The translations under genes were made by a program, and so were the position numbers. A stretch of 64,000 bases of DNA, from assembly GCF_988243305.1 (NCBI RefSeq), contig NZ_OZ547136.1; one strand, 5' to 3'. The notes under the pieces were generated by a model, which saw nothing but the letters and a program-made list of their open reading frames with translations, made no database searches and was not told where the DNA came from. The first letter of the stretch is position 1; every line of letters begins with the position of its first letter. Shown in pieces: positions 49,046-53,423 of the stretch.

Positions 49046-49831
49046 TCATTCGTCTTCTGAATCAGGTGTAATGATCTTTACAGAACCATTCTGGCAGTGC
49101 GTAACATAATCTGCCGGTAACGGACGATCGCTAATCAGAACGTCAAATGCAGAGATCGGTGCGAGGCTGGCAGAGGCCACTTCATCGAACAACGCGTGGC
49201 GGGCGAGCAAAATTTTCCGTAGTCCACGGTTCATCGCTTTACGCTTAGTGGCAAGATCTTCAGGGTTAAACCAGCTGACGCCAAAGTGATTATGCACACC
49301 GCTGGCGGAAATAAATATTTTTCGCGGATTGAGAGAGTCTAATGGCGAAGAGTTACTGGCATCGTAAAAAGCATCACTTCTGGCACGATACGTACCACCA
49401 CAAAGTATTGCTGTTACATTAGGCTTTTCATTCAACGCAACAAAGACGCGATGTGAGTAACAGATACCGGTGAAGGTGATTGCATCCGGGATCATGCTTA
49501 TAACGAGTGGTATCTCCTGGCCATTATCAAAGAAGATCAGATCATTTTCATTAACCATTCCGGCAGCCAGAATTGCAATAGGTAAGTCATCACGATGATT
49601 TTTTGGAACGTCATGGATTACTGGCATGGATGGCGCGGGTTTATTCACCATTACAATATAGCCACCCAGTAGGGTCAGTGGCAGAGGTTCATCTTCCTGA
49701 TGGAGATCGCGACGAATAGTCATTACAGAAACTTCCAGCATTCGCGCTGCGTCTTTCAAATGGATTCTGTCGGTTTTCTTAAGCAGTTCCATCAAACGTC
49801 GGATACGCTCTTTTTGCTTCGTTTCCATCAA
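49046..49831 (-). CDS. deoQ: DeoR-family regulator, DeoQ-like
   Basis: 261-aa ORF with DeoR-type HTH, divergent from the kinase/permease operon. Confidence 0.65.
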   Translation of the reverse strand: MMETKQKERIRRLMELLKKTDRIHLKDAARMLEVSVMTIRRDLHQEDEPLPLTLLGGYIVMVNKPAPSMPVIHDVPKNHRDDLPIAILAAGMVNENDLIFFDNGQEIPLVISMIPDAITFTGICYSHRVFVALNEKPNVTAILCGGTYRARSDAFYDASNSSPLDSLNPRKIFISASGVHNHFGVSWFNPEDLATKRKAMNRGLRKILLARHALFDEVASASLAPISAFDVLISDRPLPADYVTHCQNGSVKIITPDSEDE

Positions 49832-50133
49832 CTCTCTCTCCGTAAGAATGTTATAAAAATAACATTTTGGCGTTAGTAAACATTGTTTTCATTACCATAC
49901 TATACGACCGCCCCTTTGAAATGAAAAGGGTATAGGCTGCTGAGTTTTGGGCACTAATCTTGTTAGGTTGCTTATGATTAGATAGTGTTGGCCTGAGTGA
50001 TGAGACTGGAAGTCTATTAAATAAACATCGGGTTGATGTGCTAATCGCGATCTCAGTCACAAATGATGCAAAAGTAACATGCTAATGTTATTTAAATACC
50101 ATTGTTATGCGAAAGTTTATAAGAGGTAGTGAA

Positions 50134-51054
50134 ATGGACATTGCAGTTATTGGTTCCAATATGGTGGATCTCATTACTTACACTAATCAGATGCCTAAAG
50201 AAGGAGAAACTCTGGAAGCACCTGCCTTCAAAATCGGATGTGGTGGGAAAGGTGCTAATCAAGCGGTGGCGGCGGCTAAATTGAATTCAAAAGTCCTGAT
50301 GCTGACTAAAGTAGGTGATGATATTTTTGCGGATAATACTATTCGTAATCTCGAATCATGGGGAATTAATACCACTTATGTTGAGAAGGTCCCCTGTACC
50401 AGCAGTGGTGTTGCACCGATCTTTGTTAATGCCAACTCGAGCAATAGTATATTAATAATTAAGGGAGCGAATAAATTTCTTTCCCCGGAAGATATCGATC
50501 GAGCTGCAGAAGATCTGAAAAAATGCAAATTGATCGTTTTACAACTGGAAGTTCAACTGGAAACAGTTTACCACGCGATTGAGTTTGGTAAGAAAAATGG
50601 TATTGAAGTGTTATTAAATCCGGCTCCGGCATTGCGTGAGTTAGATATGTCTTATGCCTGCAAATGTGATTTCTTTATTCCGAATGAAACAGAACTGGAA
50701 ATATTAACCGGTATGTCGGTTGATACTTATGATCATATTCGTTTGGCCGCACGTTCGTTAGTTGATAAAGGGCTGAACAATATTATTGTTACCATGAGCG
50801 AAAAAGGCGCATTATGGATGACCCGCGATCAGGAAGTCCATGTTCCTGCATTCAAAGTAAATGCTGTTGATACTAGTGGCGCTGGTGACGCATTTATTGG
50901 TTGCTTTTCCCATTATTATGTTCAAAGCGGTGATGTTGAAGCCGCTTTGAAAAAAGCCGCTCTCTTTGCCGCTTTCAGCGTCACAGGGAAAGGTACGCAA
51001 TCATCTTATCCGAGTATTGAACAATTTAATGAATTTTTAACCTTAAACGAATAA
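50134..51054 (+). CDS. deoK: Ribokinase/PfkB-family sugar kinase, DeoK-like deoxyribokinase
   Basis: PfkB signature (GAGDAF); start placed at MDIAVIGS within ORF 50107..51054. Confidence 0.7.
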   Translation: MDIAVIGSNMVDLITYTNQMPKEGETLEAPAFKIGCGGKGANQAVAAAKLNSKVLMLTKVGDDIFADNTIRNLESWGINTTYVEKVPCTSSGVAPIFVNANSSNSILIIKGANKFLSPEDIDRAAEDLKKCKLIVLQLEVQLETVYHAIEFGKKNGIEVLLNPAPALRELDMSYACKCDFFIPNETELEILTGMSVDTYDHIRLAARSLVDKGLNNIIVTMSEKGALWMTRDQEVHVPAFKVNAVDTSGAGDAFIGCFSHYYVQSGDVEAALKKAALFAAFSVTGKGTQSSYPSIEQFNEFLTLNE

Positions 51055-51081
51055 TCATCCTGCACAGTTAAAGGTAGCACT

Positions 51082-52398
51082 ATGAACGATAAAAACATCA
51101 TTCAGATGCCTGATGGGTATCTGAATAAGACTCCCTTGTTCCAGTTTATTTTGTTATCGTGTTTATTCCCGCTATGGGGATGCGCAGCTGCATTAAATGA
51201 CATATTAATCACTCAATTCAAAAGTGTATTTTCGCTAAGTAACTTTGCTTCAGCATTGGTGCAGAGCGCATTTTATGGAGGTTATTTTTTAATTGCAATA
51301 CCAGCATCCCTTGTGATTAAAAAGACCAGTTATAAGGTGGCAATTTTAATTGGCCTGACGCTGTATATTGGTGGTTGTACACTTTTTTTCCCTGCCTCGC
51401 ATATGGCAACCTACACTATGTTCCTTGCAGCTATTTTTGCGATTGCGATTGGCCTGAGTTTCCTTGAAACTGCAGCGAACACATACAGTTCAATGATCGG
51501 TCCAAAAGCCTATGCCACATTGCGGCTCAATATCAGCCAGACCTTTTATCCGATTGGTGCTGCGTCTGGTATTTTATTGGGCAAATATCTGGTTTTCTCC
51601 GAGGGGGAAAGCCTTGAGAAGCAGATGTCCGGAATGAACGCCGAGCAAATTCACAACTTTAAGGTGCTGATGTTAGAGAACACCCTTGAACCGTATAAGT
51701 ATATGATTATGATTCTGGTTGTGGTCATGGTGTTGTTCCTTTTAACCCGCTTCCCAACCTGTAAAGTGGCACAGACAAGTCACCATAAACGCCCGTCAGC
51801 AATGGATACGCTGCGCTATCTGGCTAAAAATTCGCGCTTTCGTCGTGGTATTGTGGCTCAATTCCTTTATGTGGGTATGCAGGTCGCAGTATGGTCATTT
51901 ACCATCCGTCTGGCACTGGAGTTGGGCGATATCAACGAACGTGATGCTTCAAACTTCATGGTCTACAGCTTTGCCTGCTTCTTTATTGGCAAGTTTATAG
52001 CCAACATCCTTATGACACGTTTTAATCCGGAAAAAGTCCTAATTCTCTATTCCGTTATAGGGGCGCTGTTTCTGGCATATGTTGCACTGGCTCCAAGTTT
52101 CAGCGCGGTCTATGTCGCCGTCCTGGTAAGTGTTTTGTTTGGCCCTTGCTGGGCGACGATCTATGCAGGAACACTGGATACAGTTGATAACGAACATACA
52201 GAAATGGCAGGAGCAGTCATTGTTATGGCTATTGTTGGCGCAGCGGTGGTTCCGGCAATTCAGGGGTATATTGCAGATATGTTCCACTCACTACAGCTTT
52301 CATTCCTGGTTTCTATGCTCTGTTTTGTCTATGTCGGTGTCTACTTCTGGCGTGAAAGCAAAGTACGTAATGCACTGGCTGAAGTCACAGAGTCCTGA
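51082..52398 (+). CDS. deoP: MFS permease, fucose-permease-like, DeoP-like
   Basis: 438-aa polytopic ORF immediately downstream of the kinase. Confidence 0.7.
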   Translation: MNDKNIIQMPDGYLNKTPLFQFILLSCLFPLWGCAAALNDILITQFKSVFSLSNFASALVQSAFYGGYFLIAIPASLVIKKTSYKVAILIGLTLYIGGCTLFFPASHMATYTMFLAAIFAIAIGLSFLETAANTYSSMIGPKAYATLRLNISQTFYPIGAASGILLGKYLVFSEGESLEKQMSGMNAEQIHNFKVLMLENTLEPYKYMIMILVVVMVLFLLTRFPTCKVAQTSHHKRPSAMDTLRYLAKNSRFRRGIVAQFLYVGMQVAVWSFTIRLALELGDINERDASNFMVYSFACFFIGKFIANILMTRFNPEKVLILYSVIGALFLAYVALAPSFSAVYVAVLVSVLFGPCWATIYAGTLDTVDNEHTEMAGAVIVMAIVGAAVVPAIQGYIADMFHSLQLSFLVSMLCFVYVGVYFWRESKVRNALAEVTES

Positions 52399-52409
52399 GG
52401 AGAATCGTT

Positions 52410-53423
52410 ATGAGTACGCGTATTTATTTGTGGCGGGCGCTTTTTGGCGAAAAACCTCGTATCTTGCTGGAAAATAGTGATTTTACTGTCACGTCTTTTC
52501 GCTATGACAGTGGTGTCGAGGGGCTTAAAATTGCAAACAGTCGTGGACATTTAATTATTCTTCCCTGGATGGGGCAGATGATTTGGGATGCGCAATTTGA
52601 TGGACACAGTCTCACCATGTGCAATATGTTTCGCCAGCCTAAACCGGCGACAGAGGTGATAGAGACCTATGGCTGTTTTGCCTTTCATTCAGGTTTGCTG
52701 GCTAATGGCTGCCCATCTGCGGAAGATACTCATCTGCTACACGGTGAAATGGCCTGTGCCGCGATGGATGAAGCATGGATGGAATTAGAGGGAGATATGT
52801 TACGCCTTACCGGGCGTTACGAGTATGTAATGGGGTTCGGGCATCATTATCTGGCTCAGCCAACAGTGGTCCTTCACAAATCCTCTACACTGTTCGATAT
52901 TAAGATGGCCGTAACCAATCTGGCTTCTGTAGATATGCCACTACAATATATGTGCCACATGAATTATGCATATATACCAAATGCTACGTTCAGCCAGAAT
53001 ATACCGGACGAAATATTAAGGTTGCGTGAATCAGTACCTTCGCATGTTAATCCCACCCCTCAGTGGCTGGCGTTTAATCAACGGATTATGCAGGGGGAAT
53101 CCTCTCTGTCGACGCTGAATCAACCGGAATTTTATGATCCAGAAATTGTCTTCTTTGCAGATAAACTGGACGCTTACACAGATCAGCCAGAGTTTCGCAT
53201 GATCGCTCCCGATGGCACTACGTTTGTTACTCGTTTCTCCAGTGCTGAACTAAATTATGTGACACGCTGGATCCTTTATAACGGCGAGCAACAGGTAGCC
53301 GCCTTTGCATTACCAGCAACCTGTCGACCTGAGGGGTATCTTGCCGCGCAACGTAATGGCACGCTGATTCAGGTTGCACCGCAGCAAACGCGCACTTTTA
53401 CAGTCACCACAGGTATTGAATAA
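52410..53423 (+). CDS. deoX: Third gene of the deoxyribose operon (DeoX-like, function uncertain)
   Basis: 337-aa ORF immediately downstream of the permease. Confidence 0.55.
   Translation: MSTRIYLWRALFGEKPRILLENSDFTVTSFRYDSGVEGLKIANSRGHLIILPWMGQMIWDAQFDGHSLTMCNMFRQPKPATEVIETYGCFAFHSGLLANGCPSAEDTHLLHGEMACAAMDEAWMELEGDMLRLTGRYEYVMGFGHHYLAQPTVVLHKSSTLFDIKMAVTNLASVDMPLQYMCHMNYAYIPNATFSQNIPDEILRLRESVPSHVNPTPQWLAFNQRIMQGESSLSTLNQPEFYDPEIVFFADKLDAYTDQPEFRMIAPDGTTFVTRFSSAELNYVTRWILYNGEQQVAAFALPATCRPEGYLAAQRNGTLIQVAPQQTRTFTVTTGIE

Follow-up and report, generated by a model that had tools for sequence, protein, structure and literature searches.

In a 64,000-nucleotide stretch of DNA (the window; contig NZ_OZ547136.1 of RefSeq assembly GCF_988243305.1), the four genes at positions 49046-53423 almost certainly constitute deoQKPX, the accessory regulon for use of 2-deoxy-D-ribose, as it occurs on genomic islands of Escherichia coli. 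A first-pass annotation, made from the letters and their open reading frames (ORFs) alone, had described a divergent DeoR regulator, a PfkB-family kinase, an MFS transporter resembling the fucose permease and a third gene. This description is borne out by the Pfam and NCBIfam domains of the products and by the ORF listing, which gives four intact, full-length frames with the ends reported there:

49046-49831, minus strand: deoQ, ORF of 261 amino acids; RefSeq places the start at 49828 (260 amino acids), and the ATG at 49828 is the probable start
50134-51054, plus strand: deoK, 306 amino acids; a longer ORF from 50107 has 315 amino acids
51082-52398, plus strand: deoP, 438 amino acids
52410-53423, plus strand: deoX, 337 amino acids

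The whole 4378-bp stretch is 100% identical to DNA in many RefSeq E. coli chromosomes, and we are thus dealing with real sequence rather than a chance pattern of ORFs. The same DNA is present in 30% of complete E. coli genomes (1635 of 5426), almost always as a single, chromosomal copy. Automatic RefSeq/PGAP annotation names its products as a DeoR family regulator, the ribokinase rbsK, fucP and an aldose 1-epimerase family protein. An exact-sequence look-up nevertheless finds the same proteins deposited as "deoQ [E. coli O25b:H4]" (CAV02004.1) and "Deoxyribokinase" (UniRef Q707I2_ECOLX), and with exact matches for both DeoK and DeoQ the window locus is the deoK operon known from E. coli pathogenicity islands. 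The sole difference is its setting on the island, with an IS2 element on the left and a tRNA-Ile-like remnant and IS100 on the right. PMC5382810, PMC6452873 and PMC7545054, which draw on Bernier-Febreau et al. 2004, place this operon on the AL862 pathogenicity island at pheV and in strains CFT073, 55989, Nissle 1917 and NCTC 86; in NCTC 86 it lies on the island ROD 40, and a link to colonisation has been drawn (PMC5382810, PMC7545054, PMC6455142). ARAGORN finds no pheV gene within the window.

The organisation is also that of the Salmonella operon, as the first-pass annotation had noted. PMC7924626, PMC10926698 and PMC6452873 credit the description of Salmonella deoK to Tourneux et al. 2000 and that of its regulation to Christensen et al. 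2003. The Salmonella and Citrobacter loci that we retrieved for comparison are members of the same 90% protein cluster, and the Salmonella one comes from S. enterica subsp. salamae rather than being the source of the biochemically studied Typhi or Typhimurium proteins. Both loci read ilvB leader, ilvB, ilvN, deoQ on the opposite strand, kinase, permease, DUF4432 gene, uhpA, uhpB and uhpC. They match the window locus in the content, order and orientation of the four genes, with protein identities of 82-96% over the two genera (83-96% for Salmonella) and with conservation of the palindromes and the CRP-like site described below, whereas the DNA of the deo genes is only ~79% identical to that of Salmonella. 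The locus is therefore already known and has its usual E. coli island form; only the argument about its donor and the fold-based role of DeoX are mildly new, such that the origin story is slightly refined and current understanding is unchanged.

Kinase, permease and DeoX

DeoK matches PfkB of Pfam at 213.6 bits and has a ribokinase-type profile, and the question raised in the first-pass annotation was whether it would cluster with orthologues of the ribokinase RbsK. It does not: global identity to RbsK of K-12 is 35.2% (37% by BLASTP) against 95.8% to the kinase of the Salmonella deo locus, and the Citrobacter counterpart is nearly as close (95.4%). Common to DeoK and RbsK are the fold and the catalytic Asp, which in DeoK can be read from the sequence as Asp252 within a GAGD motif. 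On the generic ribokinase model TIGR02152 the protein scores 369, above the cut-off of 299.65, but on the E. coli-type RbsK model PRK11142 it reaches 251.9, below the cut-off of 341, and there are no rbs transport genes nearby. When DeoK is used to search PDB sequences, human and mouse ribokinases outscore E. coli RbsK. The BLASTP alignment with K-12 RbsK places DeoK Met10 and Tyr16 opposite Asn14 and Asn20. In RbsK, Asn14 is linked to the binding of ribose; when K-12 was evolved and re-engineered for growth on deoxyribose, the changes in RbsK were N20Y plus N14D/S (PMC6452873). The natural DeoK is thus already in the "deoxyribose" state at both positions.

Genetic evidence comes from S. Typhimurium, in which deletion of deoK abolishes growth on deoxyribose; the Salmonella enzyme phosphorylates ribose as well and can support growth on that sugar (PMC13432705). 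In the known pathway DeoK is followed by the aldolase DeoC (bioRxiv 10.1101/205583). Within E. coli, Nissle 1917 harbours deoQKPX and grows on 2-deoxy-D-ribose, and K-12 does neither (PMC7924626). As for the extent of the protein, the 306-residue form is likely to be the real one, a GAGG Shine-Dalgarno sequence lying upstream of its ATG at 50134. We rejected the 315-residue form that starts at the ATG at 50107 and appears in some database entries, including the UniRef "Deoxyribokinase" representative: its extension is not conserved, meets an in-frame TGA in Salmonella and overlaps the operator region.

DeoP belongs to MFS_1 of Pfam and is of the FHS type (fucose/glucose-galactose), with 96.1% global identity to both the Salmonella and the Citrobacter counterpart. 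It scores 324.5 on the broad FucP-type model TIGR00885, above the cut-off of 280.4, which explains its RefSeq name. On PRK10133, the model for E. coli FucP itself, it scores 285.2, below the cut-off of 427, and no fuc genes lie nearby. We infer that DeoP is a deoxyribose:H+ symporter.

DeoX carries the Pfam domain DUF4432 (58.7 bits) and is 82.8% and 84.6% identical over its length to the Salmonella and Citrobacter proteins. A sequence search of the PDB with DeoX gave no match even at E = 1. An AlphaFold2 model built from 37 orthologues (mean pLDDT 84, pTM 0.85, low confidence at residues 87-100) was compared with known structures by Foldseek; the best match was 3ty1, a putative aldose 1-epimerase (E 4e-14, TMq 0.74), and further matches included GalM from B. 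subtilis, human, yeast and L. lactis. Residues H93, H111, E113, H183, H212, E245, D251 and E308 are invariant in the 37 orthologues. As modelled, DeoX is a galactose-mutarotase-fold protein with the beta-sandwich of the mutarotases. We propose that it acts as a deoxyribose mutarotase or anomer-converting enzyme that supplies the kinase, a role like that of RbsD for ribose.

Taken together, the proteins suggest a pathway in which DeoP would import deoxyribose, DeoX would interconvert its ring or anomeric forms to yield the substrate of the kinase, and DeoK would phosphorylate it at C5, as has been shown for the Salmonella orthologue. The resulting deoxyribose-5-phosphate would then be split into acetaldehyde and glyceraldehyde-3-phosphate by the core-genome aldolase DeoC, an established pathway whose deoC gene lies outside the locus. 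Divergently transcribed DeoQ is proposed to repress deoKPX and its own gene by way of three palindromes of 20 nt, and catabolite control of the operon would come from a CRP site ahead of deoK. The ribose operon rbsDACBK-R of E. coli follows the same logic, with uptake, ring-form conversion and C5 phosphorylation by a PfkB kinase likewise joined to a dedicated repressor. Here an MFS permease takes the place of the ABC transporter, mutarotase-fold DeoX that of RbsD and a DeoR-type repressor that of the LacI-type one, and the kinase is set apart from RbsK by its low identity (35-37%) and the two substitutions noted above.

Several points weigh against this assignment. The roles given to DeoP and DeoX are putative, the growth evidence comes from orthologues in other strains, and the operator, promoter and CRP assignments are predictions from sequence. 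Furthermore, the automatic names point to ribose and fucose, both generic models are passed, and DeoK also uses ribose (PMC13432705), so that the sugar cannot be read from the family models alone. These last observations, together with the aldose 1-epimerase label, are what would be expected if the cluster were instead a second locus for the uptake and phosphorylation of ribose or another pentose, with deoxyribose as only a side substrate. We consider this very improbable, since the Salmonella orthologue is the gene needed for growth on deoxyribose, the E. coli-type RbsK and FucP equivalog models both fail, Met10 and Tyr16 stand at positions where RbsK contacts ribose and adapts to deoxyribose (PMC6452873), and growth on deoxyribose is gained by E. 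coli strains in which the cluster has been reported (PMC7924626, PMC5382810).

A slightly fainter possibility still is that the island, riddled with insertion sequences (ISs), carries the cluster as a silent or decaying passenger, non-functional in this strain. Its neighbourhood certainly abounds in pseudogenes and broken IS elements, among them an ilvN remnant, a pseudogene of UxaA, the split istA of IS100 and a degraded tRNA. Against such decay, all four ORFs retain their full length, their products have identical and widespread RefSeq counterparts, and the control region is conserved. Moreover, DeoK and DeoP are 96% identical to their Salmonella counterparts as proteins and only ~80-83% as DNA, an excess that indicates purifying selection.

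The locus is a known niche-fitness determinant. The gut offers deoxyribose released from DNA, and in pathogenic E. coli the operon has been tied to competitiveness and to colonisation of the intestine (PMC6455142, PMC7924626). With its identity confirmed, the automatic names rbsK and fucP can be put right; they are misleading, and the same difficulty is met in Klebsiella models (PMC10926698). Synteny together with Met10/Tyr16 in the kinase offers simple discriminators for annotation.

Divergent control region and operon end

DeoQ consists of HTH_DeoR plus DeoRC in Pfam and is 83.5% and 81.6% identical over its length to the Salmonella and Citrobacter proteins. It aligns over its full length with the DeoR equivalog model NF007961 at 230.2 bits, just below the cut-off of 244. 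We read it as a close paralogue of DeoR and not as the DeoR repressor of deoCABD itself. The region between deoQ and deoK is ~300 bp long, compared with 324 bp in the Salmonella salamae locus (its positions 5677-6000), and a repeat search found three related 20-nt palindromes within it. The predicted elements of this region and of the operon end are:

49847-49866: palindrome 1, AATGTTATAAAAATAACATT, perfect (AATGTTAT-AAAA-ATAACATT), with the deoQ start codon on one side and the predicted promoter of that gene on the other
49899-49927, minus strand: predicted deoQ promoter (TTTTCA, 17 nt, TATAGT), from a promoter scan, as a consensus match only
50046-50061, plus strand: CRP-like site, CGCGATCTCAGTCACA, with two mismatches to TGTGAN6TCACA
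50062-50081: palindrome 2, AATGATGCAAAAGTAACATG, operator-like
50080-50088: putative extended -10 element of deoK, TGCTAATGT, overlapped by the tandem palindromes
50084-50103: palindrome 3, AATGTTATTTAAATACCATT, operator-like
53434-53456, plus strand: hairpin with a 9-bp stem (GCGCUUAUC/GGUAAGCGC), 10 nt past the deoX stop codon, conserved

Palindromes 2 and 3 form a tandem pair, 22 nt apart, and are 75% and 85% identical to the palindrome at 49847. The arms of the latter (ATGTT...TAACAT) are kept in Salmonella and Citrobacter while its spacer varies, and its core (49849-49864) agrees at 12 of 16 positions with the DeoR operator consensus. The 49847-49866 palindrome is a candidate DeoQ/DeoR operator. 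In an alignment of E. coli, Salmonella and Citrobacter, the palindrome arms and the CRP-like site are near-invariant, as is the minus-strand TATAGT that forms the -10 of deoQ (49899-49904; ACTATACG on the plus strand), which is the same in all three genera; the centre of the spacer is poorly conserved. The CRP-like site is centred at 50053.5, ~41.5 nt upstream of the putative start of deoK transcription. Together with the extended -10, such spacing would suit a class II CRP promoter whose transcripts begin near 50095 and whose core is covered by both tandem palindromes. This model agrees with the study of Christensen et al. 2003, which reportedly described divergent promoters, tandem DeoQ operators, a further layer of repression through DeoR, and catabolite repression confined to deoKPX.

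At the other end of the operon, the hairpin at 53434-53456 is probably the terminator. The 58-nt fold has a minimum free energy of -17.4 kcal/mol (z = -3.25). A generic terminator scan called nothing at the operon end; the hairpin has no T-run and was found through homology instead.

Origin of the module

The Salmonella and Citrobacter clusters lie between an intact ilvN and uhpA, whereas here the genes sit in an IS-flanked island together with a 242-bp stub of ilvN and a 24-bp piece of spacer. In K-12, a gap of 75 bp that holds no deo genes separates ilvN from uhpA. Homology of the DNA here to the Salmonella locus runs beyond the four genes, over 48804-53456, and takes in the stub:

48804-49044, plus strand: ilvN remnant, the 3' 242 bp of the gene, with a frameshift and a stop codon; annotated by RefSeq as an acetolactate synthase small subunit pseudogene

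At the right-hand end, the 24-25 bp from 53432/53433 to 53456, which hold the hairpin described above, match two spacers at 96% identity: the one between deoX and uhpA in Salmonella and Citrobacter, and the one between ilvN and uhpA in K-12. The presence of the ilvN 3' end and of a piece of the ilvN-uhpA spacer argues that the module was lifted as a block from the ilvN-uhpA site, and it would have been mobilised into the island from that chromosomal site as one unit. All of the E. coli copies that we sampled carry the same ilvN stub plus at least 400 bp further left, and they are at least 97% identical over 48400-53427. In rank-spread, non-exhaustive samples, no E. coli genome carried the cluster in its native place between ilvN and uhpA. 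The shared stub and high identity of the sampled copies suggest a single capture of the module into E. coli.

Where the block came from is a separate question. Direct transfer from S. enterica has been suggested in the literature, according to PMC5382810, which cites Bernier-Febreau 2004. By blastn, the ilvN remnant is 90.9% identical to K-12 ilvN (positions 50-291) and 79.8% identical to that of Citrobacter, and its identity to every E. coli ilvN listed is 90.5-92.6%. It differs from K-12 ilvN at 7, 2 and 12 sites in codon positions 1, 2 and 3, a pattern that is a mix of constrained divergence and decay. The ilvN-deoQ stretch is ~78% identical to Salmonella, and the ~79% DNA identity of the deo genes to Salmonella is near the value for K-12 versus Salmonella ilvN (81.4%). 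We also searched 100,044 species-representative genomes with a degenerate DNA pattern for the DeoK peptide TYTNQMPKEGE and recovered 35 loci. The closest deoK among them, from Citrobacter amalonaticus, has 84% DNA identity, and the ilvN at none of the 35 exceeds 83% identity to the remnant. No donor was found, and E. albertii, E. fergusonii and other named Escherichia species are absent from the 35 loci, although the pattern requires the exact peptide and missed the S. enterica subsp. enterica representative, so that such absence is weak evidence. The sole record labelled as Escherichia, Escherichia sp. ESNIH1, is distant (75.7% in ilvN). These comparisons point to an Escherichia-like donor, which would fit better than a direct or recent transfer from Salmonella. 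The fuller proposition, that the E. coli copy was excised once from the ilvN-uhpA site of an unsampled Escherichia-like lineage rather than of S. enterica and that DeoX is a dedicated deoxyribose mutarotase, we regard as evenly balanced.

Two further observations concern the module itself. Its GC content in E. coli is 43.7% (40.3% in deoK), compared with 50.9% in Salmonella and 51.6% in Citrobacter, despite the 96% protein identity of DeoK and DeoP. A second E. coli variant of the module, in THO-006 (9219-18064 of the retrieved locus), is ~94% identical at the ilvN-deoQ junction and adjoins genes for an ascorbate-type PTS (IIA, IIB and IIC) and a LacI-family regulator (vpe-like). Given these different neighbours, the module occurs in at least two island contexts.

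Island surroundings

The first-pass annotation had placed the locus between IS2 and tRNA-like and IS100-like elements and had taken this position as consistent with horizontal acquisition. The flanks were found as described:

47060-48333: ORFs of an IS2-type element of the IS3 family, left of the module
54195-54262: tRNA-like sequence, right of the module (Rfam tRNA, 30.7 bits against a gathering score of 29)
54451-56252: IS100 istA/istB, right of the module

Horizontal acquisition is likewise supported, by these IS flanks, by the absence of the cluster from K-12, by its presence in only 30% of E. coli genomes and by the foreign ilvN fragment. ARAGORN calls no tRNA anywhere in the 64-kb window. 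Alignment with K-12 ileY shows the tRNA-like sequence to be a degraded tRNA-Ile(CAU) copy that has lost 5 nt from its anticodon stem and whose 5' acceptor end is damaged; it may be the relic of an old island attachment site. The istA gene of IS100 (54451-55473) is split into two ORFs by a stop codon at ~54993, which RefSeq flags as "internal stop", and istB (55470-56252) is intact; this copy of IS100 is probably defective. Small flanking ORFs at 48612-48818 and 53570-54091 gave no matches in a Pfam search.

Two minor observations lie farther out. Just right of IS100, 56724-56938 is a full-length match to the Rfam small RNA STnc100 (139 bits against a gathering score of 47). On the minus strand at ~39099-40988, two genomes give the protein WP_000757210.1 different names, "enterotoxin" and "alpha-galactosidase"; its gene adjoins malX and a MalY/PatB gene, and in this setting the enterotoxin label looks doubtful.

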